NCBI GenBank assembly: GCA_016125035.1
Contig: WGMN01000001.1
Coordinates: 193,526 to 257,525 of the forward strand
DNA from: Pseudomonadota bacterium
GTDB lineage: Bacteria; Pseudomonadota; Alphaproteobacteria; UBA2136; UBA6156
Length of the DNA stretch: 64,000 nucleotides
Reading direction: 5' to 3'
Part shown: piece after piece, positions 1 through 19,835 of the stretch
How positions within the stretch are numbered: the first letter of the stretch is position 1
How the letters are laid out: each line of letters opens with the position of its first letter
Made by a program: the position numbers and the translations under genes
Notes under the pieces: model-generated
Databases searched by the model: none
Told to the model about the DNA's origin: nothing
What the model saw: the letters and a program-made list of their open reading frames with translations, nothing else

Positions 1-251
1 CTGAAGGCCGAGAAGGTGGTGAAGCCGCCGAGCAGCCCGGTGACCACCAGGGCGCGGGCGGTGGCGGAGGGTTCTCCATGCAAAGCCCACAGTGAAACGA
101 TGAGGCCGAGGACGAAGGCACCGACCACGTTGACGGTGAGCGTGCCGTAAGGGAAAGCCTGGCCGGTGGCCCCCACCACCGCGCCCACCGTGAGGTGGCG
201 CAGCAGGCCGCCGAGGCCGGCACCGAGGAAAATGGCGAGGAGGGTGGGCAT
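1..251 (-). CDS. crcB: Fluoride ion channel CrcB/FluC. Partial: the C-terminus runs off the window edge.
   Basis: The minus-strand translation begins MPTLLAIFLGAGLGGLLRH...TVNVVGAFVLGL...GLLGGFTTFSAF, which carries the CrcB GGFTTFS motif. The ATG at 249-251 lies 1 nt after the stop of the upstream rnd-like gene. Confidence 0.7.
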   Translation of the reverse strand, partial: MPTLLAIFLGAGLGGLLRHLTVGAVVGATGQAFPYGTLTVNVVGAFVLGLIVSLWALHGEPSATARALVVTGLLGGFTTFSAF

Positions 252-252
252 G

Positions 253-876
253 TTAATGATGACTGAATACATCGGTTTCCGGCAGACCGGCGAGGTCCAT
301 CAGCACGCGGGTGGGGAGGTAATTAAGCGCGGCGAGCATGAACTCGTTACGGTTGGTCTGGGTGAGAAGCTCGGACAGTTTGGCGTAGAGGCCGTGCAGG
401 TAGAGGACATCGGAGGCGGCGTAGGCCTGCTGGGACTCGGTGAGTTCTTCCGCCGCCCAGTTGGACATCTGCTCTGTTTTGTCGAGCTCTACATCCAGGA
501 ACATTTTGCACAGGGTGCGCAGGTTGTGTTTGCCCTCGGTGGGGCGGGCCAGTTTGCTGGCGATCTTGGTGCAGAAGAAGGGTTCGATGGACGGCAGGCG
601 CAGGTGCTTTTGCAGCATGGCGAGATCGAACCGCGCATAGTGGAACAGCTTGGTGAGGCGCGGGTTGTTCAGCACCGCCACCAGGTTGGGAGAGTGGTAG
701 GCGGAATGGGGGCCGTATTTGACCAGCCAGACATTGCCCAGGCCATCGCCCACCTGGACCAGGCAGAGCCTGTCGGTTGTGAGTGACAGGCCGGTGGTTT
801 CGGTATCTATCGCCACCATGCCGGTGGGGAAATCTAGTCCGGCAGGGAGGTCTTCATGAACCAGGGTGATGGGCAT
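253..876 (-). CDS. rnd: RNase D-family 3'-5' exonuclease. Only the DEDDy exonuclease domain is present (207 aa, no HRDC domain).
   Basis: The AIDTETTGL exo I motif is present, together with a YAASDVLYL exo III-like motif. Overall similarity is to the RNase D catalytic domain. Confidence 0.7.
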   Translation of the reverse strand: MPITLVHEDLPAGLDFPTGMVAIDTETTGLSLTTDRLCLVQVGDGLGNVWLVKYGPHSAYHSPNLVAVLNNPRLTKLFHYARFDLAMLQKHLRLPSIEPFFCTKIASKLARPTEGKHNLRTLCKMFLDVELDKTEQMSNWAAEELTESQQAYAASDVLYLHGLYAKLSELLTQTNRNEFMLAALNYLPTRVLMDLAGLPETDVFSHH

Positions 877-879
877 GCG

Positions 880-1671
880 TTAGAGCACGTAGATGAAGAG
901 GAACAGGCCGATCCACACCACGTCGACGAAGTGCCAGTACCAGGCGGCGCCTTCGAAGTAGAAGTGGTTGTGGCGGGTGAAATCGCCCTTAGTGAGGCGC
1001 CAGTGCAGGAACATGAGCATCAGCGAGCCCAGCAGCACGTGGAAGCCGTGAAAGCCGGTGAGCATGAAGAACACCGTGCCGTAGACGCCGCTGGAGATGG
1101 TGTAGGCGGCGTGGTGATACTCGAACCCCTGGCAGAACAGGAAGATGATGCCCAGTTGCCAGGTGAGGAAGGTGAACAGCGTGGCATTGGCGCGGTGGTT
1201 GGTAAGCAGCGAGTGGTGCGCCATGGTGATGGTGGCGCCCGAGGTGAGCAATAGCAGCGTGTTGATGACCGGCAGGTCGATCGGCAGCGTTTTGATGTTG
1301 GCGGGTGGCCATTCCGGGTTGTGCATGCGCAGGAAGAAGTAGGCCGAGAAGAAGGCGGCGAAGAACATCACCTCGGACACGATGAAGAAGATCATGCCGT
1401 AGCGGTTGGCGAGATCGAGCACCAAAGGCACCATGCCGGCGCCGAAGCCGCGGTGGCGGGCCTCATTCACCAGCGTGAAGAACCACTGGAAGACCGCCAT
1501 GATGAGGATGAGCCCGCCCACACCCATGGCCAGGTTGCCGATGAGCGCCGGCTGCATGTGCAGGTGCGCGATGAAGCCCAAGGCGGCCAGCCCCGCGCCC
1601 AGGCAGGAGACAGGCGGCCAGATGGAACCGGTGGGGATGTAAAACTCGTGGTCGTGGTGGTGGGCTGACAT
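880..1671 (-). CDS. coxC: Cytochrome c oxidase subunit III.
   Basis: The N-terminus is MSAHHHDHEFYIPTGSIWP. The protein has 7 TM helices and the conserved FHGFHV, GAAWYWHFVDVVW and similar motifs. The internal ATG is preferred over the longer ORF start. Confidence 0.9.
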   Translation of the reverse strand: MSAHHHDHEFYIPTGSIWPPVSCLGAGLAALGFIAHLHMQPALIGNLAMGVGGLILIMAVFQWFFTLVNEARHRGFGAGMVPLVLDLANRYGMIFFIVSEVMFFAAFFSAYFFLRMHNPEWPPANIKTLPIDLPVINTLLLLTSGATITMAHHSLLTNHRANATLFTFLTWQLGIIFLFCQGFEYHHAAYTISSGVYGTVFFMLTGFHGFHVLLGSLMLMFLHWRLTKGDFTRHNHFYFEGAAWYWHFVDVVWIGLFLFIYVL

Positions 1672-1922
1672 GGGGGCTTTCTTCCGTTGGCACAAGGTTT
1701 AGCAGTTTTTGCGGGTTTTTCCAAGCGGGGGGAGGTGTTGGCCGTGGGTGGCGTTGCCGCCCTGCCAAACAGGGGGGCACCAGAGGGGGAAACTTGCGAT
1801 GAAGATGGTGTTTTGGCCACGGGGGAGCACCCTTGAAAAGGACCAAATACCGCAAGTTGGGCCAAAGGACGTGGCAGGCGGGAGAGAGCCATTTTAGCCT
1901 GAGGCATAACAAGAAAGTGAAG

Positions 1923-2735
1923 ATGATGACACGTACCCCCCTGCCCCGCCTGCTGTTTGCGGCGATGTTGTGCGCAACCACCTCTCTGGCCAGTGAAAAA
2001 AGCCACGATGACGGACACCCCGCCGCCGAGCCCAAGGTGGTGAAAATGGAAGATGCCGCCAAAGCCCACACCGCCCCGCATTGGAACTACGGCCCGCCCA
2101 ATTGGGGAGAGTTGGACCCGGCTTTTGCGATGTGCGGGGCAGGGAAGGCGCAGTCTCCGATAGATGTGGCGGTGGAAGGAGAGAAAGGTGGGGACAAGCC
2201 GGTGATGGCCTATAAGCCCACGCCGTTGACGGTGGTGAACAATGGCCACACCTTGCAGGTGACCTACCTGACCGGCAGCGAGCTGGTGTTGCGCGGCAAG
2301 AGCTATGAGCTGAAGCAATTCCACTTCCACACCCCCAGCGAGCACGTGGCGCACGGTAGCGCCGCGCCAATGGAAGTGCACCTGGTGCACAAGGACAAGG
2401 ATGGCAACCTGGCCGTGGTGGGCGTGATGTTTGAAGAAGGTGCGGAAAACCCGACGCTTGCCAAGATATTGGCCGTGGCGCCGCATGGTGAGGGCGAGGT
2501 GAGCGCCAAAGGTGTGGAGGTGGATGCCAGTGCGTGGCTGCCGGAAGGGACGGGGTTTGTGCGCTACAATGGATCGCTTACCACGCCGCCGTGCAGCGAG
2601 GGGGTGAAGTGGATGGTGGCCACCAAGCGTGTGCAAGCCAGTGCCGCGCAATTGGAGGCCATGCGCGCGATCATGAAAAATAATGCGCGGCCGGTGCAAC
2701 CGTTGAACGGGCGCATGGTGCTGGATGTGGAGTAG
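1923..2735 (+). CDS. Alpha-class carbonic anhydrase, periplasmic, with a signal peptide.
   Basis: A signal peptide MMTRTPLPRLLFAAMLCATTSLA is followed by the alpha-CA signature. This includes QSPIDV, FHFHTPSEH and the zinc-ligand histidines HLVH, plus a PPCSE motif. Confidence 0.9.
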   Translation: MMTRTPLPRLLFAAMLCATTSLASEKSHDDGHPAAEPKVVKMEDAAKAHTAPHWNYGPPNWGELDPAFAMCGAGKAQSPIDVAVEGEKGGDKPVMAYKPTPLTVVNNGHTLQVTYLTGSELVLRGKSYELKQFHFHTPSEHVAHGSAAPMEVHLVHKDKDGNLAVVGVMFEEGAENPTLAKILAVAPHGEGEVSAKGVEVDASAWLPEGTGFVRYNGSLTTPPCSEGVKWMVATKRVQASAAQLEAMRAIMKNNARPVQPLNGRMVLDVE

Positions 2736-2868
2736 GCGCTAGAGCGCCTGGTTGCGGTAAGCCGAGACCAAGGACAGGTGGGCGAGCCGTGGTTTGTGCC
2801 CGGGCTTTACCAGCCCGGCTTGGGGCATGCGGTTCAAGCGTCTTGGGGAAAGCGCTTGCCGGGCATGG

Positions 2869-3147
2869 CTAGTGGCTGGAGCCCTGCGCGGGTTGGTTGG
2901 CAAGGGCCGGGTTTTGGTACATGGGCAGTTTGGTGCCGGAGTATTGGTAGTCGATGCGGTCGCCGAACTCTTGCACGTAGGGCTGGGTGTGGGTGTGGCC
3001 CCAGCCGCCGAGGAAGGTGATGACACCAAAGAAATAGAGCACCGCGCCGCCGACGCCGATGGCCAGTGCCTTCATGAACCTGGAGAAGGTGCTGGTGTAG
3101 TGGGACTCTAGCTTTTCCTTATTATAATGCAGCTTGGGGGCGGACAT
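2869..3147 (-). CDS. Small membrane protein (92 aa), possibly an aa3-type oxidase subunit IV-like protein.
   Basis: It has a single TM helix (FSRFMKALAIGVGGAVLYFFGVITFLGG) whose hydrophobic pattern resembles bacterial CoxIV. It sits between coxA and coxC on the same strand. Confidence 0.35.
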   Translation of the reverse strand: MSAPKLHYNKEKLESHYTSTFSRFMKALAIGVGGAVLYFFGVITFLGGWGHTHTQPYVQEFGDRIDYQYSGTKLPMYQNPALANQPAQGSSH

Positions 3148-3152
3148 GGGGG

Positions 3153-3305
3153 TTACTCTCCGGTTTGGGTGAAGGGTGCGGGCGCCACGGGGGAGCTGCG
3201 CAGGAAGGGATAGGCGATAATGCTGCCGGCAAAGGCCAGCGCCACCGCGCCGAGAGCCAGCGCCAGGCGCAGGTTTTTGCGTTGTTGGGCGGCGGTGGGC
3301 TGCAT
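3153..3305 (-). CDS. Small TM protein (about 50 aa), translationally coupled to coxA.
   Basis: Its ATG lies 4 nt after the coxA stop (TAAGCCCATG). It has a single TM helix, LALALGAVALAFAGSIIAYPF. The longer 60-aa ORF start would overlap coxA. Confidence 0.3.
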   Translation of the reverse strand: MQPTAAQQRKNLRLALALGAVALAFAGSIIAYPFLRSSPVAPAPFTQTGE

Positions 3306-3309
3306 GGGC

Positions 3310-4929
3310 TTAGACCGTGGGCTTGGTTTTGGCATAGAGCTCGACCGGGTAGGCTTCGTCGTGGTTCCAGACCGGCAGTTTTTCGAAGTTATGCTCGTGG
3401 GGGGGAGAGCTGGTGTTGGTCCACTCCAGCGTGATGCCGCCCCAGGGGTTGGCGCCAGCCTTTTTGCCGTACTTGCGGCTGTAGAGGATGTTGATGACCA
3501 AGAGCAGCTGCGTGGTGCCGAAGATAAAGGCGCCCACCGAGCAGAGCATGTTGAGGTCGGCGTACACGGGGTTGTAGTCGGCGATGCGCCGCGGCATGCC
3601 CATCATGCCCAAAAAGTGCATGGGGAAGAAAGTGATGTTGACCGAGATGAACGACAGCCAGAAGTGCCAGCGGCCGATACGCTCGGACAGCAGGCGGCCG
3701 GACATTTTGGGGAACCAGTGGTAGATGGCCGCCATGATGCCGAAGTAGCTGCCGGTGACGAACACGTAGTGGATGTGCGCCACCACGTAGTAGGTGTCTT
3801 GCATCATGTAATCGACCGGAGCCGAGGCCAGCACCACGCCGGAGAGCCCGCCGATGGTGAAGAGGATGACGAAGCCGATGGCGAATTTCATCGCCGTGGT
3901 GAAGGCGATGGAACCGCCCCACATGGTGGCCATCCAGTTAAACACCTTGATGCCGGTGGGCACGGCGATGAACATGGTCATGATCATGAAGCCCATCTGC
4001 GCCGGGATGCTCATGCCCACGGAGTACATGTGGTGGGCCCAGACCATTTGCCCGAGCACCGCGATGGCCACCAGCGCCCACACCATGCTGTGGTAGCCGA
4101 AGGGCGGTTTGCGGCTGTGGGTGGAGATGATGTCGGACACCATACCGAAGACCGGGAGGATCATGATGTAGACCGCCGGGTGGGAGTAGAACCAGAAGAT
4201 GTGCTGGAAGAGCACAGGGTCGCCACCGCCGGCGGGGTTGAAGAAGGCGGTGCCGAAGTTACGATCGCACAGCAGCATGGTGACCGCGCCGGCGAGCACC
4301 GGGGTGGCCACCAGTTGCAGCCAGGCGGTGATGAGCATGGCCCAGGGGAACAACGGCATTTTGAACAGCGACATGCCAGGTGCACGCATGTTGAGGATGG
4401 TGACGATGAAGTTGATGGCGCCCAGGATGGAGCTGGCACCGGCGAGGTGGACGGCGAGGATCCACATGTCCATGCCCGCACCGGGCGAGAAGGCGGCGGA
4501 GGTGAGCGGAGGGTAGACCGTCCAGCCCGCGGCGTCGGACCCGCCGGGGACGAACAGGCTGCCGAGCATGAGCATGGCGGAGAACGGCATGATCCAGAAC
4601 GACCAGTTGTTGAGCCGGGGGAAGGCCATGTCTGGCGAGCCTATCATGATGGGGACGAAGTAGTTGCCAAAGCCGATGAGCCCCGGGATGATGGCGAAGA
4701 AGATCATGAACGTGGCGTGCATGGCCGTCATCTGGTTGAAGAACGCGCCGTCGACGAACTGGTAGCCGGGCTCGGCGAGCTCCGCCCGGATGACCAGCGC
4801 CATGCAGCCGGCCAGGAAGAAGAAGATCAGCGACGACATCATGTACATGCGGCCGATGTCTTTGTGGTTAACGGTGGTGAGGTAATACATGAAACCTTTG
4901 CGGGGAGTGGCGTGGGCGGCGGTGGCCAT
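3310..4929 (-). CDS. coxA: Cytochrome c oxidase subunit I (aa3-type).
   Basis: The protein is 539 aa with 12 TM helices. It carries the canonical heme/CuB ligand motifs, including WAHHMY, HHMF and GMPRR. Confidence 0.95.
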   Translation of the reverse strand: MATAAHATPRKGFMYYLTTVNHKDIGRMYMMSSLIFFFLAGCMALVIRAELAEPGYQFVDGAFFNQMTAMHATFMIFFAIIPGLIGFGNYFVPIMIGSPDMAFPRLNNWSFWIMPFSAMLMLGSLFVPGGSDAAGWTVYPPLTSAAFSPGAGMDMWILAVHLAGASSILGAINFIVTILNMRAPGMSLFKMPLFPWAMLITAWLQLVATPVLAGAVTMLLCDRNFGTAFFNPAGGGDPVLFQHIFWFYSHPAVYIMILPVFGMVSDIISTHSRKPPFGYHSMVWALVAIAVLGQMVWAHHMYSVGMSIPAQMGFMIMTMFIAVPTGIKVFNWMATMWGGSIAFTTAMKFAIGFVILFTIGGLSGVVLASAPVDYMMQDTYYVVAHIHYVFVTGSYFGIMAAIYHWFPKMSGRLLSERIGRWHFWLSFISVNITFFPMHFLGMMGMPRRIADYNPVYADLNMLCSVGAFIFGTTQLLLVINILYSRKYGKKAGANPWGGITLEWTNTSSPPHEHNFEKLPVWNHDEAYPVELYAKTKPTV

Positions 4930-4974
4930 GGAGTTGTTCCTTATATACTTGCGCGGTTTATAGCACGGCGGCGG

Positions 4975-5820
4975 TTAGGGTTGAAGAGGCGTTGACATAG
5001 AAATATCCAGTGCCGTGCGCAGGTGCGCGGGGATGGAAGGGGCATCCAGGATGGTGCTGTGGGTGGTGCCGGGGATGGGCATCACGGTGGCGCTGGTGAG
5101 GTGAGAAGCCAAGATTTCAATATGATGGGAGGGGATCAAGCCGTCGGTGGGGGCATACAGGATGGTGGTGCGGGCGCTGACGTGATCGATAATATCTTCT
5201 GTTGCCCAGGGATATTTGAGCAACCAGCGGACGGGCAGCCAGGGGTATTTCTCTTCAGCCAGGCGGCGGATGGAGGCCGGCGGGGCGACAAGCACCAGGT
5301 GGTTGAGCGGGCGCTGTGTGGCCAGCCAGGTGGCCACCGCGGTGCCCAGGCTGTAGCCCACCGCGTCGACTTGCGCCGGGTGCAGGCGCTGGTTGAAGGT
5401 ATCGTAGAGGAAGGCGGCGTCGCCCTTGAGTGAGGTCTCGGTGGGTTCGCCGGTGCTGCGCGCGCCAAAGGCGTTGGGGTAGCCACGGTAGGAGAAGCCC
5501 GCCACGGCGACCGAGCCCCCCGGGAAGACGGTGTTTTTGAGGAAGGCGGCGAAGCCCACCACGTCGTGCGCGTTGCCGCCGAAGGCCAGCACCAACGTGG
5601 GGCTGGGCGCGGTGGCGGGGAAGAACACGCCGTTGAGCTGGGTGCCGTCGGCGGTGGTGAGGGTGAGGTGCTCGAACGGTGCTGCTTCTTCCGAGGGGGG
5701 TGGCACGTGGTTGATGGTGCGGGGGAAGACGATGGCGTCTTGGTTAAGGTACAGTTTGCCGACGAACCCCAGCGGAATGAGCAACAGGACCAACAGGGCG
5801 AGGACGATACGGCGGAGCAT
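4975..5820 (-). CDS. Membrane-anchored alpha/beta hydrolase.
   Basis: There is an N-terminal TM helix, a GYSLG nucleophile elbow (GxSxG) and a C-terminal Asp/His region. It lies between cox11 and coxA on the same strand. Confidence 0.65.
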   Translation of the reverse strand: MLRRIVLALLVLLLIPLGFVGKLYLNQDAIVFPRTINHVPPPSEEAAPFEHLTLTTADGTQLNGVFFPATAPSPTLVLAFGGNAHDVVGFAAFLKNTVFPGGSVAVAGFSYRGYPNAFGARSTGEPTETSLKGDAAFLYDTFNQRLHPAQVDAVGYSLGTAVATWLATQRPLNHLVLVAPPASIRRLAEEKYPWLPVRWLLKYPWATEDIIDHVSARTTILYAPTDGLIPSHHIEILASHLTSATVMPIPGTTHSTILDAPSIPAHLRTALDISMSTPLQP

Positions 5821-6390
5821 TTAGGGGGCCTTCTTCTTGATGCGAGGATCGCCCGGCAGGGCCTCGAACAGAGTGTAGGAGAAGGTGATGGTGTGCACCC
5901 CTTCAGGCAGGTCGGGCGAGATGGTGAAGTACAGCGGCAGGCGCACGGTTTTTTGCGCCGGGTAGTGTTGTTGCTCGAAGCAGAAGCACTGCTGCAGCTC
6001 GACGTAGGGGGTGATGTCGATGTCTGGGTCTCCACCCATGCCGTAGAGCATGTGGATGGCGATGCCGTTAATGGGCTTGCTGCTGAGATTCTCGGCCTGG
6101 TAGGCGGTGAACACCGGCTCGCCCAGGTGCACCTTGAGGTTGTAGGCCACAGGTGTGAACTGGATGGGCACCCCCGTGTTGGTGTTGGCGGTAAAGCGCA
6201 CGGTGACGGTGCGGTTGGAAACCTGCGTGGGCACCACAGCGGTGGACTGCACCGCCACCGACGGAATAGCAATGCCGAAGTGCTGGCAGAACACCCGGTA
6301 GAGCGGCACCATGGCCGCCGTGAAGCACCCCATGGCGATGATGATGGCGATGAGGACGAAAAGCAGGCGGGTGTTTTTGTTAAGGGGCAA
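5821..6390 (-). CDS. ctaG: Cytochrome c oxidase assembly protein Cox11/CtaG (CuB insertion).
   Basis: It has an N-terminal TM helix, a YRVFCQHFG-type motif and the CFCF copper-binding motif. Confidence 0.85.
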   Translation of the reverse strand: MPLNKNTRLLFVLIAIIIAMGCFTAAMVPLYRVFCQHFGIAIPSVAVQSTAVVPTQVSNRTVTVRFTANTNTGVPIQFTPVAYNLKVHLGEPVFTAYQAENLSSKPINGIAIHMLYGMGGDPDIDITPYVELQQCFCFEQQHYPAQKTVRLPLYFTISPDLPEGVHTITFSYTLFEALPGDPRIKKKAP

Positions 6391-6392
6391 GA

Positions 6393-7277
6393 TTACATCC
6401 AGCTATCGATGACCATGGCGAGGAAGAGGAAGGCAAGGTAGTACAGGCTGCGGGTGAAGACAACTTGCGCGGCCTTGCGGTTTTGCGCGGTAGGTTGCGG
6501 CGCGTGGAGCAGCTTCCAGGCCGCAAGGCCCCACCACGCGGCCAGCACAGTGGCGGTGCCGACGTAAATGAAACCAAGCGGATGGAACAGCCCGCCCAAA
6601 AGCGTGACCGGAAAGAGTAGGGTAAGGTAGCGGACGATGGCCAGGCGGGTGGCGGACTCGCCATGCACCACCGGGTACATGGGCACGCCGGCGCGGGTGT
6701 AGTCGGCATTGGTGATGAGGGCCAGGGCCCAGAAGTGGGGAGGTGTCCACAGAAAAATGATGGCGAACATAAGCCAGGGCAACGGCGTGGAGACACCCCC
6801 CTGCACCGCCGCCCAGCCGACCAGCGGCGGGAAGGCGCCGGCTGCGCCGCCGATGACGATGTTCTGCACCGTATGGCGCTTGAGCAGCATGGTGTAAATG
6901 AACACGTAGAACAGCGCGCCGGAGAGCGCCATGGCCGCCGTGAGCGGGTTGACCACCAGTGCGGTGAGTGCGCCGATGACGATGAGGCTGGTGCCGAGCA
7001 TCAGGACGGAATGAGGTTGCCAGCGGCCGCGCGGGAGGGGGCGGTTTTTGGTGCGGTTCATCAGCGTGTCGATGTCGCGATCCCACCACATGTTGACCAT
7101 GTTGGCACCCGAGGCCGAGAGCACCAAACCCAGCGTGGAAAAGAACAAGTTGGTGAAAGTGAGCAGCTGGAAATTGCCCTTGGCCGCCACCAGCGCGCCG
7201 CACACGCAGGTGATGGCCAGCAGCAGGATGATGCGCGGCTTGGCGAGCTGGAGGAGATCGGTGACGAAGGCAGGCAT
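6393..7277 (-). CDS. ctaB: Protoheme IX farnesyltransferase (heme O synthase).
   Basis: The UbiA-family motifs NMWWDRDIDTLMNRTKNRPLP are present in a polytopic membrane protein. Confidence 0.9.
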   Translation of the reverse strand: MPAFVTDLLQLAKPRIILLLAITCVCGALVAAKGNFQLLTFTNLFFSTLGLVLSASGANMVNMWWDRDIDTLMNRTKNRPLPRGRWQPHSVLMLGTSLIVIGALTALVVNPLTAAMALSGALFYVFIYTMLLKRHTVQNIVIGGAAGAFPPLVGWAAVQGGVSTPLPWLMFAIIFLWTPPHFWALALITNADYTRAGVPMYPVVHGESATRLAIVRYLTLLFPVTLLGGLFHPLGFIYVGTATVLAAWWGLAAWKLLHAPQPTAQNRKAAQVVFTRSLYYLAFLFLAMVIDSWM

Positions 7278-7287
7278 GCGGCGCGCG

Positions 7288-8232
7288 TTAACGGCTGGGG
7301 TGAAAGCGCCCGGCGTTGCCGTAGCTTAAGTTAAGCACCGCGCCGATGGCGGCCAGCCACACCAGTGTGCCCCAAGCAAGGTGGGCGATGGACAGAGGCT
7401 GGTAAAAGGCCGGGTAGTTGGCAAAGCTGTAGAGCGTGGCGATGCCCAGCCCCACCTGCCCCCACACCATGATGTGCAGGTGCAGCGCCACCTTGCGCAG
7501 GTGTGGCGCGGCGCGCTTGGCCACCGAGATGAGCGAGATGGACAGCAGCATGGTGGCCAGCGCGAAGAAGCGATGCTGCATGTGGATGTGCTGGGCGGGA
7601 TCGGCCGGGAACCATTGGCCAGCGCACGAGAACAGCCCGCCGCAGACACCGCCGGCGTGGCCGGAACTGGTGAGAGCGCCCAGCACCATGGTGCACCACA
7701 CGAAGGCGGCGAAGGTGATGAGCAGGATGCGCATGGCCTTGGCGGTGGGTAGCGGCGTGGGCTTACCTTTGGCGGCGATGGCACGGCGCAGCCAGACGAG
7801 GGAAGCGAAGAACAGCATGGCGGTGCCCAGGTGCAGGGCGACGCTTAAAGGCGAATTGGCCTGAAAGATGGTGAAGGCGCCGAGAGAAATTTGCACGATG
7901 AGGGCGAGGGTGGCGGCGGCCAAGGGTTTGCGTTCATAAGCCGGGCGTTTGATGGCGAGGACGACCAGCGCCAGCATGAGGACGCCGATGGTGGCGGCCA
8001 GTGTGCGGTGCGACCACTCCAGCGCCACCTGCCACCATTGGTAATGCATGGCGCCGACGATGTAACCGCCGGGAATGGAGCTTTCTGGGAACGGGATATA
8101 TGCGCCGTAGCAATGGGGCCAATCCGGGCAGGACATGCCGGCATCAAACACGCGAGTGGCGCCGCCGATGACGATGAGCAGGTAGGTGAGGAGCAGCGTG
8201 ATGGCCGCCAGGCGGTGGTAGGGGAGGTTCAT
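7288..8232 (-). CDS. ctaA: Heme A synthase (COX15/CtaA).
   Basis: The protein contains GGATRVFDAGMSCPDWPHCYG and the conserved His pairs. The internal start MNLPYHRL at 8230-8232 was chosen because the longer ORF N-terminus is Pro/Ser-rich frame noise. Confidence 0.8.
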   Translation of the reverse strand: MNLPYHRLAAITLLLTYLLIVIGGATRVFDAGMSCPDWPHCYGAYIPFPESSIPGGYIVGAMHYQWWQVALEWSHRTLAATIGVLMLALVVLAIKRPAYERKPLAAATLALIVQISLGAFTIFQANSPLSVALHLGTAMLFFASLVWLRRAIAAKGKPTPLPTAKAMRILLITFAAFVWCTMVLGALTSSGHAGGVCGGLFSCAGQWFPADPAQHIHMQHRFFALATMLLSISLISVAKRAAPHLRKVALHLHIMVWGQVGLGIATLYSFANYPAFYQPLSIAHLAWGTLVWLAAIGAVLNLSYGNAGRFHPSR

Positions 8233-8287
8233 GGGGGCACCATAGCCGCGCGGGCGCGGTTGGGCAAGACAGCCCTTTACATACACG

Positions 8288-9127
8288 TTAGCGGCGGGGG
8301 TTGAGGAAGACGGTGGTGAGTTTGGAGGTGGGGTTGGCGAGTTGCGGGGCCACGGTTTTAAGCGAGACGGTGGCAGATTTTTCCAGCCCATAGGGCATAT
8401 TGAGGATGATGTTGCCGGTGCCGTGGGCGCCGGGCGGATTGGGGATGCGCCAGGCAAATTCAGCCAGCCAGGTGGCCGAGACCGCCAGCTGCTTGAGGCC
8501 TTCCACCAGCATGCGGTGCGGCTTGGTGGGCAGCAGCGGGTACCACACCATGATGGTGGCCTGGGGGTTGATGGCGAGGATGGTGTGGACGGTTTCAACC
8601 GTTTGCTCGTACTCGGTTTTGACCTCGTAGGAGGGGTCTATCAGCACCAGCGTGCGTTGGCCGCGGCGGATGAATTTGGGGATGGTGCCGTGGCCATCGG
8701 CCAGATGAAGGTGCAGGTTGGCGCGGTGGATGCCGGTTTTGAGGTGCTCGAACTCGCCGGGGTGGGCCTCGGCGAGATAAAGGTGGTCTTGCTCGCGCAG
8801 CAGGTGGGCGGCCACGCCGGGCGAGCCGGGGATGAGGCTAAGCGGGCCATGGCCATTATGCGCGGCAACGGTGAGGAGGTAGGGGTTCTCAGCCGGAAGG
8901 GTTTGCGGAATGGCCGGGTTGTAGACGCGGGCAAGGCCGGTTTGGAACTCCTTGAGTTTTTGCACCTCTTGCCCGTGGAGGGGGTAGAGGCCGCGACCGG
9001 CGTGGGTCTCGTACACATGTAAAGCCGCCGGCTTTTGCGTGAGCTGCGTGATGAGGTGCGCCCACAGCGTGTGCTTGAGGACATCGGCCGCGGAGCCGGC
9101 ATGGTAGGCGTGTTGGTAAGACAGCAT
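8288..9127 (-). CDS. rlmJ: 23S rRNA (adenine2030-N6)-methyltransferase.
   Basis: The N-terminus MLSYQHAYHAGSAADVLKHTLW matches the RlmJ signature. The internal ATG at 9125-9127 was chosen. Confidence 0.8.
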   Translation of the reverse strand: MLSYQHAYHAGSAADVLKHTLWAHLITQLTQKPAALHVYETHAGRGLYPLHGQEVQKLKEFQTGLARVYNPAIPQTLPAENPYLLTVAAHNGHGPLSLIPGSPGVAAHLLREQDHLYLAEAHPGEFEHLKTGIHRANLHLHLADGHGTIPKFIRRGQRTLVLIDPSYEVKTEYEQTVETVHTILAINPQATIMVWYPLLPTKPHRMLVEGLKQLAVSATWLAEFAWRIPNPPGAHGTGNIILNMPYGLEKSATVSLKTVAPQLANPTSKLTTVFLNPRR

Positions 9128-9135
9128 GGGCGCAC

Positions 9136-9170
9136 TGTAACCCGTAACCCGGGGCCCGTAACCCGTTATG
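9136..9170. repeat. 35-nt heptamer-periodic element (CGTAACC-type, five units), flanked by the inverted repeat GCACTG...CAGTGC.
   Basis: The sequence reads tgtaacc cgtaacc cggggcc cgtaacc cgttatg. It is 34/35 identical in pattern to the copy at 57012-57046. It lies 9 nt upstream of the rlmJ start codon. Confidence 0.7.
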
Positions 9171-9230
9171 TGGCTTGTCAGTGCTGAAATTTGGGGGCAG
9201 GCTGGGCGCCTTGAAACAGGAGGAGTGAGG

Positions 9231-9653
9231 ATGGAGACTTTATATACTGCGAAAGCCAGCGCCACTGGAGGCCGCAACGGCAAGGCCGCGACAAGCGACG
9301 GCAGGCTGAAGGTTTTGCTGACGCACCCGGTGGCCCCCGGTCGGCCGGAAGTGGGCACCGACCCGGAACAGCTTTTTGCCTGCGGTTATGCGGCGTGCTT
9401 TGGCGGCGCCACCGAGTTTGCCGCCAAGCAAAAGGAGGTGGAACTGACGCAGCCGGTACAGGTGGACAGTGAGGTGAGTTTGCTGAAGAAGCCGGATGTG
9501 GGCTTTACGGTTGGGGTGAAACTGACGGTGCATTTGCCGGGCATCAAACAAAGTGTAGCCGAAGAAGTGGTGGAGTTGGCACACACCATTTGCCCTTATT
9601 CCAATGCGACGAAGGGGAATGTTGCCGTTGAGACGGTGGTTTTGGCAGGTTAG
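9231..9653 (+). CDS. ohr: Organic hydroperoxide resistance protein, OsmC/Ohr family.
   Basis: The N-terminus METLYTAKASATGGRNGKA matches Ohr, as do the EQLFAAGYAACF-like and cysteine motifs. A strong SD, aggagg, precedes the ATG. Confidence 0.85.
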   Translation: METLYTAKASATGGRNGKAATSDGRLKVLLTHPVAPGRPEVGTDPEQLFACGYAACFGGATEFAAKQKEVELTQPVQVDSEVSLLKKPDVGFTVGVKLTVHLPGIKQSVAEEVVELAHTICPYSNATKGNVAVETVVLAG

Positions 9654-9711
9654 GAGGTCTTTCGCAAAGCCGTGCGGGAGGAGGGCTTGTCCCGGACAGC
9701 AGGCGGGGCCC

Positions 9712-9736
9712 CGAAAAATGTATAGGACATTTTTCG
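9712..9736. terminator. Bidirectional hairpin between the convergent genes ohr and asnB.
   Basis: A perfect 10-bp inverted repeat, cgaaaaatgt/acatttttcg, encloses a 5-nt loop. Confidence 0.5.
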
Positions 9737-9783
9737 ACCCACCTAGCTTCCGGGATGACAGTCCCCCGGCCAGTGCTTGTGAG

Positions 9784-11523
9784 TTAACGGTGCCATTCTT
9801 CCGACAGGGTTTGCCACGATTGGCCCTGGACGTGGATGGCGTGCCAGAAGGCCAGCAGGGTGAGGCTGAGCGCCAGGTTGGCGGACTTGGCGTGGGCGAG
9901 GTTGCCGAGCAGTTTTTCAGCCGCGTGGGGGTGGAGGATTTGGGTGAGGATGGGGCTGGTTTGCCAGAGCGCGGCGAGGCGCTCTTTTTTATGGGCGAGG
10001 AAGCTGCCCACCGCCACCGAGAAGCCCTGCTTGCGCGCCCAGGCGAGTTGCGACTGGCCTTGCGCGGCGAGGTGCTGGCGCAGGATGAGCTTGCCGGCAT
10101 CTGGGCGGACTTTGAATTCATCCGGCAGCGAGAAGGCCCATGCGGCGAAGGTGTCATCCAGGTAGGGCACGCGGCCTTCGATGCCGTGAGCCATGGTGGT
10201 GCGGTCTAGCTTTAAGAGCAGGTCGTTGGGGAGCCAGCCCGCGACATCCTGCCCCTGGCGGCTTTGTAGTTTGGTGAGGCCGCGGGTGGGCCAGGGTTGC
10301 TCTGGCGGCGGAGGCGTGGAGACGTTGATCTGGAACAGCGACTGGAAGGGCGCGGCATCGCCGCTGCGGCGGGCTTTGAAGTAGCTGAGCAGGTTGGGCT
10401 TTTTGCGGTAGGCCGGGTAGCCGGCGAGCATTTCATCACCGCCCTCCCCCGAGAGCAGGATCTTCACGTCCTCACGTGCGCGGGCGGTGAGCTTGAGCAG
10501 TGGCAGGGCGGCGTAGTCTGTCGCCAGGTCATCCATCGCCCAGGCGAGTTTGGGGAGCATTGGCCAGAAGTCGGATTCATCATAGGGCACGGTGGTGTGG
10601 GTGGCGCCGATGCTTTGCGCGAACGAGGCGGCGATATCGGCCTCATTCACCCCGCCTGCCACCATGATGCGCGCGGTGTAGGCGTGCACCGGGGCGCCTA
10701 AGCTCCGCATGGCGAGGGTGACGGCAGTGCTATCCAGCCCGCCGGAGAGCAGGATGCCGTAGGGGACATCGGCCTGCAGGTGGCGGCTGACTGCGGCGGT
10801 GAGCTGCTCGTTGAAATCGTGATTCGTTATTCGTGATTCGTTATTCGTAACTGGGTTGAGGGGGGGCAATTTACGGCGGCGCATGATGATCTTGCCGTGG
10901 CGGACGGTGAGCCTCTCGCCCGGCAAAAGGCGGTGGATGTTTTTGAACAGCGTTTGGCTGCCGGTGGAGTAGTGCCGGTTGAGCAGTTGCGGCAGCACCG
11001 TGAGGTTGGGCTCGGCGCGCACCCAGCCGGCGGCGAGGATGGCTTTGGGCTCGGACGCGAAAATGAAACCGAGATTGGTTTCGGCATAATAAAGCGGTTT
11101 GATGCCGAAGGGATCGGTGGCGAGGTAAAGCGTTTCTGTTGCGCCATCGGCCAGGGCCAGGGCGTACATGCCCTGTAGCTCTTCCAGCGCCCCTTCCCCG
11201 ATTTGGGTGAAGCGGTGCAGGGGTGGTTCGCTATCCGACGCGGTGTGCAGGCGGGCGCCGTTTTGGGTGGCGAGGGTTTGCAGCGCTTTGTAGTTGTAGA
11301 TTTCGCCGTTCACCACGATGGCGGTTTTGCCTGCGACAAGGGGTTGGCGGCCGCCCGAGATATCGATGATGGAAAGGCGGCGGTGGGCGAGGCCGAGGCT
11401 GGCGTGGGTGAAGGTGCCTTCGCCATCTGGCCCGCGGTGGGCCAGCGCGGCGAGCAAAGGGGCCAGATGTTTGGCCGTGGCCTTTTGGCTTTTGATGAGA
11501 CTGACGCCGGCGATTCCGCACAT
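9784..11523 (-). CDS. asnB: Asparagine synthetase (glutamine-hydrolysing).
   Basis: It begins MCGIAG, the N-terminal Cys nucleophile. It has the glutamine amidotransferase class-II domain plus the synthetase SGGLDS motif. An embedded heptamer element encodes TNNESRITNHD. Confidence 0.85.
   Translation of the reverse strand: MCGIAGVSLIKSQKATAKHLAPLLAALAHRGPDGEGTFTHASLGLAHRRLSIIDISGGRQPLVAGKTAIVVNGEIYNYKALQTLATQNGARLHTASDSEPPLHRFTQIGEGALEELQGMYALALADGATETLYLATDPFGIKPLYYAETNLGFIFASEPKAILAAGWVRAEPNLTVLPQLLNRHYSTGSQTLFKNIHRLLPGERLTVRHGKIIMRRRKLPPLNPVTNNESRITNHDFNEQLTAAVSRHLQADVPYGILLSGGLDSTAVTLAMRSLGAPVHAYTARIMVAGGVNEADIAASFAQSIGATHTTVPYDESDFWPMLPKLAWAMDDLATDYAALPLLKLTARAREDVKILLSGEGGDEMLAGYPAYRKKPNLLSYFKARRSGDAAPFQSLFQINVSTPPPPEQPWPTRGLTKLQSRQGQDVAGWLPNDLLLKLDRTTMAHGIEGRVPYLDDTFAAWAFSLPDEFKVRPDAGKLILRQHLAAQGQSQLAWARKQGFSVAVGSFLAHKKERLAALWQTSPILTQILHPHAAEKLLGNLAHAKSANLALSLTLLAFWHAIHVQGQSWQTLSEEWHR
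10818..10852. repeat. 35-nt heptamer-periodic element (CGTGATT/CGTTATT-type, five units) inside the asnB CDS, in frame.
   Basis: The units are cgtgatt cgttatt cgtgatt cgttatt cgtaact. On the coding (minus) strand it translates to ...TNNESRITNHD... without a frameshift. Confidence 0.75.
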
Positions 11524-11556
11524 ACCCAACGGTATAGGCGGAATCGGCGCGGACGT

Positions 11557-12912
11557 CTAGCGGCTGAAGCTGCGGCGCGGGCGACCGCCGAAGGAGCGGT
11601 TGCCGCCACCGCCGTGGCTGTTGCCGTGGGTGCGCCCGCCCTGGTGTTGGCCCTGGCCGCCGCCGCTGTTGCCGCCGTGGTTACCCTGCGAACGTGCCGG
11701 GCGTTGGCCGCGCTGTTTGGGGCGGCCCGGAGGCGCCTCGGCGGAGACGATGCGGCGGAAATCGGCCTCGGTGAAGGAGGATTCCAGGCCTTCTATCTTG
11801 CTGAAGGTGAAGGGTTTGCCCAGGCGTTTTTCGATATCGCGCAGCAAGGGGAGATCGGGCGGGGAGACCAGCGAGATGGCCACGCCCACCGCGCCGCCGC
11901 GGCCGGTGCGGCCGATGCGGTGGGTGTAGTCTTCCGCCAGGTTGGGAAGATCATAATTGATGACGTGGGAGAGGTTCTTCACGTCGAGCCCGCGTGCGGC
12001 GACGTCGGTGGCCACCAGCACCTTGAGGCGCCCGGCGTGCAGACTATCCAACGTGCGCTTGCGTTGGTTCTGCTTCATGTCGCCGTGCAGGGCGCCGGTG
12101 GAGAAGCCTTGCTGTTGCAGCTTTTTGGCCAGCCTATCCGCCCCGTGCTTGGTGGCGGAGAAGATGATGACCTGGTCGACATCGTTTTGCTTGAGCAGGT
12201 GCGAGAGCATGTTCTGCTTATGGTCGGTGTTATCCACATGGAAGACGTGCTGGGTGATGGCCGAGTGGTCTTGCTTGGCGGCGGCGAGCTGGGCGCGGTG
12301 CGGATTTTGCAGGGTGCGCGAGGCGACCTTTTCCACCTCGGGGCTGAAAGTTGCCGAGAACAGCAGGATTTGCGGGCGCGAGGGCAGCGCGGCGATGATC
12401 TTTTCCACCGGTTTGAGGAAGCCCATGTCGAGCATGCGGTCGGCTTCGTCGAGCACCAGGACTTCCACGCGGGAGAAATCCACGCGCCGTTCGTTCATGT
12501 GGTCGATGAGGCGGCCGGGGGTGGCGACGAGGATATCCAGCGGCCGGGAGAGCAACTGGTACTGCGGGCCGTAGCCCACCCCGCCGATGACCACCCCGCT
12601 GCGCACGGAGAGGTGTTTGCCGAAGAGTTTGAGGTTATCCATGCATTGCTGGGCAAGTTCCCGCGTAGGCGTAAGCACCAGCACGCGCGGGCCGTGGCCC
12701 TGGCGGGCGCTGGGGCCGGAGACGACGCGTTGCAGGCACGGCAGCACAAAAGCCGCCGTTTTGCCGGTGCCGGTTTGCGCGCAGGCCATGACATCCTTGC
12801 CCTGCAAAATGGCCGGGATGGTTTGCGCCTGGATGGGGCTGGGCGCGGTGAAGCCGGCATCTTGAATAGCCTGGAGGATGGCAGGCTTGAGGTTAAACGA
12901 CGTGAAGCTCAT
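11557..12912 (-). CDS. rhlE: ATP-dependent DEAD-box RNA helicase (RhlE-like) with an RGG/Gly-rich C-terminal tail.
   Basis: The Q motif, Walker A AQTGTGKT, DEAD, SAT and HRIGRTGR motifs are all present. The C-terminus is low-complexity and rich in G, R, N and Q. Confidence 0.9.
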   Translation of the reverse strand: MSFTSFNLKPAILQAIQDAGFTAPSPIQAQTIPAILQGKDVMACAQTGTGKTAAFVLPCLQRVVSGPSARQGHGPRVLVLTPTRELAQQCMDNLKLFGKHLSVRSGVVIGGVGYGPQYQLLSRPLDILVATPGRLIDHMNERRVDFSRVEVLVLDEADRMLDMGFLKPVEKIIAALPSRPQILLFSATFSPEVEKVASRTLQNPHRAQLAAAKQDHSAITQHVFHVDNTDHKQNMLSHLLKQNDVDQVIIFSATKHGADRLAKKLQQQGFSTGALHGDMKQNQRKRTLDSLHAGRLKVLVATDVAARGLDVKNLSHVINYDLPNLAEDYTHRIGRTGRGGAVGVAISLVSPPDLPLLRDIEKRLGKPFTFSKIEGLESSFTEADFRRIVSAEAPPGRPKQRGQRPARSQGNHGGNSGGGQGQHQGGRTHGNSHGGGGNRSFGGRPRRSFSR

Positions 12913-13172
12913 GGCTATGAGACCTTATGTTGGTGCGGCGCTCTGGCCCAAAGATGGCCATTGGCTGCGGGTTGTGGGCGCCTGGACCTTACGTAAGGTT
13001 CTTGAAGTGCTGGCGGTGATATGGGGGGCGAAGCGGCAAAAGGCAAGCCCCATATGCATTTATTTGAAAAAATGTGTGTTTTAGTAAGAAATTTGCCCCC
13101 CAGGGGCTGGCCTTTTGGCTGCGCGTGGGCTACAAGGGCGCCGACAACAGCCAGACTTAGGATTGAAAGACC

Positions 13173-14993
13173 ATGCGCGAAAAGACCCGGAACATTGCCA
13201 TTATCGCCCACGTGGACCATGGGAAGACCACGCTTGTGGACGCGCTGCTGAAGCAGACCGGCACCTTTGCCAGCAACGAAAAAGTGGCCGAGCGCGCCAT
13301 GGACAGCAACGACATTGAGCGTGAGCGCGGCATTACCATTTTGGCCAAGACCACCAGCATTATGTACAAGGATTACCGCATTAATGTGGTGGACACCCCC
13401 GGGCACGCCGACTTTGGCGGCGAGGTGGAGCGCATTTTGGGCATGGTGGATGGTGCCGTGCTGCTGGTGGACGCCGCCGAAGGCCCCATGCCGCAGACCA
13501 AATTTGTGCTGGGCAAAGCCTTGCAGCTGGGCCTGAAGCCGATTTTGGTGGTGAACAAGATTGACCGCGGCGACGCGCGCCCCGACGAAGTGGTGAACGA
13601 GACCTTTGACCTGTTTGACAGCCTGGGCGCCGACCACGACCAGCTGGACTTCCCCATTTTATACGCCGTGGGCCGCGATGGCTGGGTGAGCAAGGATGCG
13701 AAGGTGAAGGGAGATAACTGCTTCCCCCTATTGGACCTGGTGCTGGAGCATGTGCAGGCGCCGCAGGGCGATGCCACCGCGCCGTTTAAGATGCTGGTGA
13801 GCATGGTGGAGCGTAATGAGTTTGTGGGCCGGATCGTGACCGGGCGCATCTTCTCCGGCAGTGTGAAGAAGAACATGCCGATTAAGGCCATGGACCGCAA
13901 CGGCGCGGATATTGACCGCGGCAAGGTGGTGCAAATTTTCGGCTTCCAGGGGTTGAAGAAGGTGCCGGTGGACGAAGCCAGCGTGGGCGACATTGTGGCC
14001 ATTGCCGGGCTTGGCAACGCCTACGTGAGCCACACGCTGTGCGACACGAGCGTGAATGAGCCCCTGCCCGCTGTGGCGATTGACCCGCCGACCTTGATGA
14101 TGACCTTTAGCGTGAACGACAGCCCCCTTTCCGGACAGGAAGGCAAAAAGCTGACCAGCCGCGAAATTGGTGCGCGTTTGTTCGCCGAAGCCGAGACCAA
14201 CGTGGGGTTGATTGTGGAGCAGGGTTCCACCACCGAGAGCTTTAAGGTGATGGGGCGCGGTGAGTTGCACCTGGGGGTGCTTATTGAGACCATGCGCCGC
14301 GAGGGGTTTGAGCTGAGCATTTCCCGCCCGGAGACCATCTTCCGCGAAGAGAACGGCGTGAAGCTGGAGCCTTATGAAGATATCATCGTGGACGTGGATG
14401 AGGCCTACAGCGGTGTGGTGATGGAGAAAATGGGCCTGCGCCGCGCCGAGATGGTGAATATGATCGCCGACCACCATGGTAAGCAGCGCCTTATCTTCGT
14501 GGGGCCGAGCCGCGGGATGATCGGTTACCGCAGCGAGTTTTTGACCGACACGCGGGGCACCGGTGTGTTGACGCGCCAGTTTAAGGAATATGGGCCGCTG
14601 AAGCAGCTGAGCGGAGGGCGCCGCAACGGCGTGCTGGTGAGCATGGCCAATGGGGTGAGCACGGCGTACATTTTGAACGAACTGGAAGCGCGCGGGACGT
14701 TGTTTATTGGCGACGTGGTGACCGTTTACGATGGGATGATTGTGGGCGAAAACAGCCGCGAGGATGATTTGGAAGTGAACCCCACGCACGCCAAGAAGCT
14801 CTCCAACGTGCGTGCCGCGGGTAAGGACGACGCGATTAAGCTGACGCCGCCCAGGGACATTACGCTGGAGTACGCGCTGACCTATATTCAGGACGACGAG
14901 CTGGTGGAGGTGACGCCGAAGAACATCCGCCTGCGCAAGCGCGGGTTGGATGCGCATAGCCGCAAGAAGTACCGCCGGGAAGCGGGTAATTAA
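13173..14993 (+). CDS. typA: Translational GTPase BipA/TypA.
   Basis: The N-terminus is [19 protein letters not shown], followed by [14 protein letters not shown]. The length is 606 aa. Confidence 0.95.
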
Positions 14994-15003
14994 GGAAGGG
15001 TTG

Positions 15004-15046
15004 AGGGGGCTGGGGTGCGCCAAAAGTGCGCCGCAGCCCCCTTCTC
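15004..15046 (+). terminator. Likely rho-independent terminator of typA.
   Basis: A GC-rich hairpin, gggggctggggtgcgcc...gcgccgcagccccc, is followed by a T-rich tract. Confidence 0.55.
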
Positions 15047-15099
15047 TGCGCTTAAAAACTTGACGAAACCTTTGGTTATGGCGATAACCGGGCCCGTGC

Positions 15100-15187
15100 G
15101 GAAGTGTGGCCGAGTGGTTGAAGGCGCACGCTTGGAAAGCGTGTATGGGGCAACTCATCGCAGGTTCGAATCCTGTCACTTCCGCCA
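15100..15187 (+). tRNA. tRNA-Ser (GGA anticodon), with a long variable arm and encoded CCA.
   Basis: The sequence GGAAGTGTGGCCGAGTGGTTGAAGGCGCACGCTTGGAAAGCGTG...CAGGTTCGAATCCTGTCACTTCCGCCA was folded by eye. The D-arm, anticodon arm, long variable arm and T-arm all form. Confidence 0.85.
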
Positions 15188-15225
15188 GTTAAATGAGGGA
15201 ATGGCCAGTTTTGGCTTGCACGCCT

Positions 15226-15316
15226 TAAGGCGCACGCTGGACTCTTAATTGTCCACCTTCGGTGGAACAGCGTGCATGGGCAACTTATCGCAGGTTCGGA
15301 CTCTGCCACTCCGCCA
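15226..15316 (+). pseudogene. Partial duplicate of the tRNA-Ser 3' portion (anticodon stem to CCA), with a 31-nt hairpin-containing insertion replacing the anticodon loop. It is probably an att-site remnant or pseudo-tRNA.
   Basis: It aligns with tRNA-Ser over ggcgcacgct...gcgtg(c/t)atggg(g)caact(c/t)atcgcaggttcg...ccgcca. The 5' acceptor and D-arm are absent and the T-stem is mutated. Confidence 0.6.
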
Positions 15317-15340
15317 GTTGCAATTGGGAGATGCGCCAAA

Positions 15341-15736: not shown

Positions 15737-15842
15737 GAGTTTCGGCAAACCGTGTTTTACGGCTGCTTGATTAGCAACCACTAGAGTTGCGGGTTGTGTA
15801 CTGCATACGATAGGCTGGTGCCCAGGAACGGGAGAAAACGCC

Positions 15843-17381: not shown

Positions 17382-17417
17382 CTGCAAGCACAAGGGGCCG
17401 GATGGCCCCTTTGCTTT

Positions 17418-19814: not shown

Positions 19815-19835
19815 GGTTTTGTTTCCTTTGATTAA

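Follow-up and report, generated by a model that had tools for sequence, protein, structure and literature searches.

A split cytochrome c oxidase locus in an uncultured Pseudomonadota bacterium: mostly a clade-specific gene order, with a probable passenger carbonic anhydrase

RESULTS

Gene content of the oxidase locus

We analyzed a 64,000-nucleotide stretch of DNA, here called the window, that carries the genes of a cytochrome c oxidase in several separate pieces (positions 193,526 to 257,525 of contig WGMN01000001.1, assembly GCA_016125035.1, from a Pseudomonadota bacterium of the alphaproteobacterial lineage UBA2136; UBA6156). Genes were called from the list of open reading frames (ORFs) and from Pfam and NCBIfam searches of the window proteins. 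The result is an observation of gene order, to which a chance statistic is not applicable. The main locus begins on the minus strand with ctaA for a type 1 heme A synthase (7288..8232; PF02628, 5e-40) and continues with ctaB for heme O synthase (6393..7277; UbiA PF01040, 1.6e-62), cox11, also called ctaG, for the CuB chaperone (5821..6390; PF04442, 2.7e-33, with a CFCF copper motif in the translation), abh for a predicted membrane-anchored alpha/beta serine hydrolase of 281 amino acids (4975..5820; Pfam Abhydrolase_1), and coxA for subunit I (3310..4929; COX1 PF00115, 1.5e-158), whose helix VI carries the A2-type motif WFYSHPAVY. Directly 3' of coxA is orf50 (3153..3305), which encodes a small single-pass membrane protein, and then orf92 (2869..3147), which encodes a further predicted single-pass membrane protein, conserved in 13 aligned loci. 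The gene rlmJ (8288..9127, minus strand; PF04378) stands upstream of ctaA, and the intergenic gaps along rlmJ-ctaA-ctaB-cox11-abh-coxA-orf50-orf92 are 55, 10, 2, 0, 45, 4, and 5 nt.

A 133-nt spacer containing short GC-rich palindromes (2736..2868) separates orf92 from a convergently oriented gene on the plus strand for an alpha-carbonic anhydrase (CA) of 270 amino acids (1923..2735; PF00194, 6.5e-40). The CA ORF is open from a TTG at 1833, but its start is probably at 1923, which agrees with the 270-amino-acid NCBI protein. On the other side of CA, a divergent spacer of about 250 nt (1672..1922; like the first, read from the sequence) leads back to the minus strand and to coxC for subunit III (880..1671; COX3 PF00510, 6.7e-60), whose ORF runs from a TTG at 1695 and has a likely ATG start at 1671. 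After gaps of only 3 and 1 nt there follow, on the same strand, an rnd-like gene for a stand-alone DEDD 3'-5' exonuclease of 207 amino acids (253..876; PF01612, 4.9e-35) and the fluoride channel gene crcB (1..251), which runs off the window and is represented by its N-terminal 83 codons (translation MPTLLAIFLGAG...GGFTTFSAF). An Rfam search of the window returned two tRNAs only and no fluoride riboswitch.

The subunit II gene, coxB, is about 27 kb from the main locus on the opposite strand (32529..33548, or from 32508 by the ORF list, plus strand; PF00116 and PF02790; TIGR02866). It lies downstream of a TetR regulator and a resistance-nodulation-division (RND) efflux operon composed of a membrane fusion protein, a pump, and an outer membrane factor (OMF) (25863..32437, plus strand; Pfam). 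SURF1, for the heme a insertion factor, is about 55 kb away on the minus strand (55178..55876; PF02104, 9e-19), where it and murJ (53605..55227, plus strand) share 50 nt at their 3' ends (55178..55227). An earlier note on this DNA had named these genes and their positions, had given the order ctaA-ctaB-cox11-hydrolase-coxA-orf50-orf92, convergent CA, and coxC-rnd-crcB, and had placed coxB 27 kb off on the other strand after the RND operon and SURF1 55 kb off overlapping murJ; our gene calls agree on every one of these points. That note had also raised the matter of a second coxB paralogue in the genome, and for the 64 kb of the window the answer is that no further cox paralogue is present.

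An A2 motif on a CoxA that scores nearer to A1 enzymes

By sequence criteria, CoxA and CoxB are predicted to form an A-family heme-copper cytochrome c oxidase. CoxA scored 713 bits against TIGR02891 (cutoff, 671), and its translation contains HPAVY, WAHHMY, VAHIHYV, and TGIK, so that the CuB and heme histidines, the tyrosine, and the K channel are intact. CoxB scored 205 bits against TIGR02866 (cutoff, 148) and has an intact binuclear CuA site (HSFF...CAELCGQAHGEM), which marks a cytochrome c oxidase and not a quinol oxidase. No heme c motif (CxxCH) was found in the CoxB sequence, including its C-terminal tail (33339..33545), a low-complexity segment, roughly 70 residues long, that is enriched in Ala, Pro, Ser, Thr, and Val. 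A tail of a similar kind is present in the 64%-identical CoxB protein of a metagenomic locus, L087 (L087:1640-1820).

A1 oxidases carry XGHPEV in helix VI, with the D-channel glutamate, and A2 oxidases carry YSHPXV, with Tyr-Ser in the place of that glutamate (PMC8780969). The window CoxA lacks the helix-VI glutamate of the A1 type and reads YSHPAV, the A2 motif. In phmmer searches against the PDB, CoxA scored 577 bits with plant mitochondrial COX1, 567 bits with Paracoccus, and 511 bits with the A2 caa3 oxidase of Thermus (2YEV); A1 enzymes overall scored 537 to 577 bits, and the best of them, from plant mitochondria, Paracoccus, and Rhodobacter, 567 to 577 bits. CtaA has two Cys pairs (CPDWPHC and VCGGLFSC), which makes it Bacillus-like type 1, and it scored 26.5 bits against the alphaproteobacterial CtaA model (cutoff, 550). 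The window cluster also contains Cox11, which in a survey of alphaproteobacterial genomes was found only with A1 clusters (PMC6431628).

The gene order is largely that of a clade

A scan of GTDB r232 with CoxA, using one genome per species, yielded 80 loci (L001 to L080). The 17 loci with a CoxA 70 to 87% identical to that of the window all carry YSHPAV (WFYSHPAVY), and the 63 loci with a CoxA 55 to 59% identical all carry GHPEV (WFFGHPEVY). Gene order divides the 80 loci identically: it is coxB-coxA-cox11-coxC-(SURF1)-ctaA-ctaB in 63 of 63 GHPEV loci and (coxB)-ctaA-ctaB-cox11-(hydrolase)-coxA-small transmembrane ORF-orf92-coxC in the 17 YSHPAV loci, none of which has SURF1 next to the operon. 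The members of the YSHPAV clade are uncultured Pseudomonadota metagenome-assembled genomes (MAGs) labeled Alphaproteobacteria, Magnetococcales, or Proteobacteria. The earlier note had measured the window against a contiguous coxB-coxA-cox11-coxC-SURF1 operon, an array that the window does not have; since that is the A1 order, it is the wrong yardstick for an oxidase of a clade with the A2 motif and an order of its own. Set against the order of its clade, the window deviates in two points alone, the inserted CA and the separation of coxB.

In a neighbor-joining tree of CoxA, the window nests within the hydrolase-bearing subclade. The coxB gene lies immediately 5' of ctaA in L009, L010, L012, L013, L014, and L016, usually with rsmE slightly further upstream. 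In the window and in L001, L002, L005, L017, and L083, rlmJ adjoins ctaA in coxB's place, and the window coxB still adjoins rsmE. Because rlmJ precedes ctaA in the nearer relatives too, the detachment of coxB was inherited. The adjacency of coxC and rnd is also found in L005 and L017 and, more loosely, in L008, and the window coxC is 57 to 74% identical to the coxC that stands directly 3' of orf92 in relatives. Three features were seen in the window genome alone: the CA gene, an RND operon preceding coxB, and the placement of crcB after rnd, a pairing that no related locus has. The split that the earlier note considered unusual is therefore mostly the clade norm, with most of it going back to an ancestor of the clade or subclade (the order, the hydrolase, the detached coxB, the remote SURF1, and the coxC-rnd pair), and it is unusual in these three additions. 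The tight coupling of coxC to both rnd and crcB holds for the spacing, but as a link it recurs for rnd and is found only here for crcB.

Other genes have entered the operon elsewhere in the group. The spacing between orf92 and coxC is 0 to 30 nt in nine relatives versus 1.2 kb in the window, and L005 and L017 have a GNAT acetyltransferase at this same junction (Pfam). There is a YdjM gene between ctaB and cox11 in L001 and L083 (Pfam), an antisense RlmI-like methyltransferase gene between abh and coxA in L001, L002, and L083, an alanine racemase gene between cox11 and coxA in L013, and a cytidine deaminase gene between ctaA and ctaB in L014 and L016; L016 also has genes for two proteins of 520 to 550 amino acids without assigned identity between ctaB and cox11. 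In L001, L002, and L083 the operon stops after coxA and is followed by dnaN and then rsmE (about 11600 to 14200), and L006 has a solo coxA. With unrelated genes at so many junctions in relatives, the finding of a single CA in a single genome is the expected outcome of recurrent neutral insertions and rearrangements. Whereas dnaN directly follows coxA in L001, L002, and L083, the closest relatives, the two genes are 55 kb apart in the window, a sign that the lineage has undergone extensive local rearrangement.

Comparison with known oxidase loci

In the aa3 oxidases of Paracoccus denitrificans and Rhodobacter sphaeroides, the subunit I gene (ctaD) is located elsewhere. These are A1 enzymes with subunit I detached, whereas in the window it is subunit II, and they include a subunit IV (COX4_pro_2) that the window orf92 product does not detectably resemble. 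The Paracoccus surf1c gene is linked to those for subunits II and III (PMC9145763). By analogy, these cases show that separated structural genes are not exceptional and that a split oxidase locus would be compatible with a normal enzyme. The gammaproteobacterial A1 operon (L018 to L080, e.g., Competibacter, Plasticicumulans, and Wenzhouxiangella) has the same protein set, with subunits I to III, Cox11, SURF1, and CtaA/CtaB. It differs in carrying GHPEV and not YSHPAV, in placing the assembly genes after the structural genes where the window has them before coxA, in lacking the hydrolase and orf92, and, unlike the window, in keeping SURF1 inside the operon.

Subunit II of the Thermus caa3 oxidase carries a cytochrome c domain. 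This A2 enzyme from Thermus thermophilus (PDB 2YEV) has YSHPxV in place of the D-channel glutamate, as does the window CoxA, but its subunits I and III form one fused polypeptide, whereas the window subunits are separate and CoxB is without CxxCH. For the alphaproteobacterial/mitochondrial subtype b operon, the published order is COX2-COX1-CtaB-CtaG_Cox11-COX3-DUF983-SURF1-CtaA (bioRxiv 10.1101/2023.11.21.568154; PMC10411912). It shares Cox11 and a seven-transmembrane-helix COX3 with the window, but its order and motif differ, and its CtaA is of the alphaproteobacterial type, in contrast to the two-Cys-pair type 1 CtaA of the window. Geiger et al. described the MarineProteo1 lineage as being without A1-type COX1-3 (PMC10411912), and this remark may concern the kind of enzyme described here.

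Accessory genes restricted to the clade

The orf92 gene always lies between coxA and coxC in the 13 loci aligned. For its product, a single membrane pass is predicted, with the N terminus inside the cell and a conserved periplasmic tail, (P)F..FGDR....Y.G.KLP, and an exhaustive HMMER search recovered only 31 representative clusters among 1.84 billion. Searches against Pfam (13 members) and the PDB assigned it to no family and gave no match to an oxidase chain, and comparison with a Paracoccus subunit IV sequence by hhalign gave a probability of 0.8%. On these grounds we rejected it as the bacterial aa3 subunit IV (COX4_pro_2). Ten relatives have a counterpart of orf50, a small ORF after coxA with a basic stretch followed by a hydrophobic transmembrane segment. 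We also considered orf50 as the "cytochrome oxidase small assembly protein" NF038351, but the score was 13.6 bits (cutoff, 27.5; E = 0.044), and 1 of 11 orf50 positional homologues gave this weak match; beyond this one sub-threshold match the assignment is unsupported.

The hydrolase gene (NCBI MBI1308441.1) is located between cox11 and coxA in L001 to L005, L007, L017, and L083. Its catalytic triad, Ser157-Asp226-His254, is invariant across 27 orthologues. The AlphaFold2 model has a predicted local distance difference test score of 95 and an N-terminal transmembrane helix at residues 2 to 31, and Foldseek matched it to esterases and monoacylglycerol lipases with a probability of 1.0 and TM-scores of 0.55 to 0.67. 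The best PDB match by sequence was the MARTX ABH domain (E = 3.6e-10). From the model and these matches, the intercalated gene is predicted to encode an alpha/beta serine hydrolase of the esterase/lipase type. A contig labeled Blastochloris sulfoviridis (VWPL01000004.1; L081:7269-9682), possibly a contaminant in that assembly, has a 54%-identical orthologue of the hydrolase directly 5' of an rnd orthologue, with cox genes neither between the two nor nearby, an apparent loss or relocation in which the outer neighbors were kept. Its presence there beside rnd without cox genes suggests that the hydrolase is not strictly oxidase dependent. The fixed operon positions of orf50, orf92, and the hydrolase suggest small subunits or assembly factors, but a role for the hydrolase as a dedicated oxidase factor is speculative, given that orthologue and the generic esterase fold.

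coxB, the RND operon, and SURF1

Some 70 to 90 nt separate the stop codon of the OMF gene from the start of coxB, which has the same orientation. A metagenome scan with CoxB recovered one close relative only, L087, in which coxB is directly beside a homologue of a 762-amino-acid hydrolase gene with no RND genes between them. In the window, the 762-amino-acid hydrolase gene flanks the RND block. This block has a G+C content of 0.56 to 0.60, and its G+C and its GC skew at third codon positions (GC3 skew) are below those of neighboring genes. Its composition and its absence from L087 fit an RND operon inserted 5' of coxB. A different explanation is a regulatory split, in which coxB was captured by the TetR-RND operon and coxC by the rnd-crcB unit, so that the supply of oxidase subunits is tied to envelope or fluoride stress. 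The short same-strand distance from the OMF gene to coxB and the 3- and 1-nt gaps of coxC-rnd-crcB would suit such an arrangement, but neither the RND-coxB nor the rnd-crcB adjacency occurs in any relative, the atypical composition of the RND block suggests insertion, and nothing points to shared regulation. We regard this explanation as improbable.

Before the RND block, the window has a minus-strand beta-oxidation cluster (17418..25760; fadE-like, fadB-like, and fadA-like genes) followed by the 762-amino-acid protein with a C-terminal Hydrolase_4 domain, whose counterpart is the conserved divergent neighbor of coxB in L087. The TetR-RND-OMF block together with coxB (25500..33550) has a low or negative plus-strand GC3 skew, from -0.14 to +0.14. 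We dropped the negative GC3 skew of coxB as proof of a recent inversion, because plus-strand genes vary from -0.14 to +0.42, and so wide a variation suggests a codon-preference component. The split of coxB from ctaA also predates the divergence of the window and L001.

SURF1 as called overlaps the ORF of a divergent AI-2E transporter by 35 nt at the 5' ends (55842..55876), and the pairing of SURF1 with this neighbor recurs in L001. Throughout the window (1..64000), G exceeds C on the plus strand, by 0.06 to 0.29 per 2 kb, and at third codon positions each of the minus-strand genes tested gave a plus-strand skew between +0.2 and +0.46. The skew does not switch at any point in the window, although dnaA (61126..62559), dnaN (59898..61049), and recF (58689..59750) are located at its right end, all on the minus strand. 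This leaves two possibilities: oriC lies away from dnaA, or the C-rich strand carries most of the conserved genes of this region.

The carbonic anhydrase

The CA is identical to NCBI MBI1308438.1, whereas exact look-ups of the CA and CoxA proteins in a contig index gave no match. It has the Carb_anhydrase domain with its three Zn-ligand histidines (QFHFHTPSEH...EVHLVH) and a signal-like N terminus (MMTRTPLPRLLFAAMLCATTSLA), and it is probably an active periplasmic enzyme. Among 5.8 billion proteins, its best matches besides itself are only 45 to 54% identical and belong to a mixture of taxa, with Erythrobacter, Novosphingobium, and Anaerolineae among them. The two nearest homologues that we inspected lie beside thioredoxin and adenylyltransferase genes or beside GidA and second-CA genes, with no cox genes. 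Neither L083 nor any of the 17 clade loci has a CA gene less than 10 kb from coxA. The third-position GC skew of the CA gene (+0.215) and its GC3 (0.77) are within the range of the resident plus-strand genes, and this typical composition indicates that the insertion is not recent. No T-tract terminator was found in the spacer between CA and orf92.

These results bear on the proposal, made in the earlier note, that the CA is linked to pH or CO2 handling at the respiratory chain. In its full form, the periplasmic CA would serve the oxidase through pH buffering or CO2/bicarbonate interconversion at the proton-releasing P side, and its position would have been selected. The gene does lie physically between oxidase genes, and it diverges from coxC across a common control region of 250 nt. 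The signal peptide predicted for its product would bring the enzyme to the compartment of the CuA domain, and the gene looks long resident in its codon-position composition. However, among the loci compared CA and coxA are close together only here, the nearest CA homologues are in contexts free of cox genes, a GNAT gene occupies the same junction in L005 and L017 while assorted housekeeping genes occupy others, and the CA is on the opposite strand. The proposal finds no comparative support, and we think it very unlikely. Most likely, the CA is an incidental insertion that severed coxC from a formerly tight orf92-coxC pair.

Integrity of the oxidase and of the assembly

The fragmentation could also be a stage on the way to losing aerobic respiration, in a lineage whose genome is fluid. 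Relatives are further broken up, with dnaN after coxA in L001, L002, and L083 and a solo coxA in L006, and L081 has the hydrolase and rnd adjacent with no cox genes between them. Decay of this kind is hard to reconcile with the window itself, in which all cox ORFs are full length and keep their key residues (the CoxA histidines, tyrosine, and TGIK, the CoxB CuA site, and the Cox11 CFCF motif), all assembly genes are present, and CoxA is 70 to 87% identical to its relatives; we give it little credence. Because every catalytic and assembly component is intact, the cell most likely makes a working cytochrome c oxidase of the A family.

Over 2,624 bp (1347..3970), the window matches a separate Logan assembly of run SRR10063242 (L095) with 100% identity, and this segment spans coxC', CA, orf92, orf50, and coxA'. 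The source is a MAG (locus tags GC129_), in which chimeric contigs are possible, but an assembly or binning artefact is barely credible as the cause of the scattered arrangement, because this independent assembly matches the junctions, the rlmJ-ctaA, abh-in-operon, and coxC-rnd junctions recur in independent genomes, and every piece lies within one 64-kb window of a single 461-kb contig.

DISCUSSION

We consider it likely that the window encodes a complete, functional-looking oxidase whose genes follow a clade operon, with local insertions of the CA and the RND operon and with the CA as a passenger. The gene identities, the helix-VI motif, the synteny, and the insertions in this account are shown by the sequences. 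The ancestral operon of the clade would have been coxB-ctaA-ctaB-cox11-coxA-small transmembrane ORF-orf92-coxC. In an inner subclade, the membrane-anchored alpha/beta hydrolase would have been gained between cox11 and coxA, and the linkage of coxB to ctaA lost. In the window genome, a 1.2-kb segment with the periplasmic CA would then have been inserted, on the opposite strand, into the tight orf92-coxC junction, and the TetR-RND efflux operon would have been inserted upstream of coxB.

This history predicts at least four transcription units. The first would be ctaA-ctaB-cox11-abh-coxA-orf50-orf92, with gaps of 0 to 45 nt, perhaps with rlmJ at its head. Because the CA insertion uncoupled coxC from orf92, coxC would need a promoter in 1672..1922, where that of the CA gene would also have to lie, and the second unit would be coxC-rnd-crcB, read from a new promoter in this 250-nt spacer and divergent from the CA. 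The third and fourth would be coxB alone and SURF1 alone. The CA would be independently transcribed and have no dedicated respiratory role, an absence of coupling that we infer from the comparison of loci. Heme A would come from CtaB and the type 1 CtaA, as the presence of ctaA and ctaB suggests, Cox11 would deliver CuB, and SURF1 would aid the insertion of heme a.

Several points weigh against this account. We infer the transcription units from gene spacing only, and the polarity of the events, with coxB ancestrally linked, comes from a single-protein neighbor-joining tree and parsimony. The clade comparison covers about 19 related loci, which are MAGs throughout. Around both the CA and the RND-coxB block, repeat searches gave short matches at chance level only, with no insertion sequence ends, target duplications, or mobile-element scars at either insertion. 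A scan of positions 1 to 9800 for sigma-70 promoters and intrinsic terminators returned counts at the shuffle expectation, with nothing in 1672..1922 or 2736..2868. Finally, the position of the CA, if long retained, could reflect some benefit.

For the CA, the outcome is that a story of coupling between CA and respiration is replaced by an ordinary one, that of an operon in a rearrangement-prone lineage gathering unrelated insertions. As a useful by-product, the comparison yields a sharply bounded oxidase subtype that three features set apart: YSHPAV on a backbone that scores nearer to A1, with Cox11 in the cluster; assembly genes that come first; and two or three clade-restricted small proteins plus the hydrolase in fixed positions. 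We tentatively suggest, as a possibility on the doubtful side, that the YSHPAV clade represents an undescribed A-family subtype that has an A1-like backbone and an A2 proton-channel motif and is matured by Cox11 and type 1 CtaA, in which orf50, orf92, and, in the inner subclade, the periplasm-facing hydrolase would be true extra subunits or assembly factors and the CA a passenger. The subtype is relevant to the interconversion of A1 and A2 proton channels and to the oxidases of deep-branching relatives of the Alphaproteobacteria.

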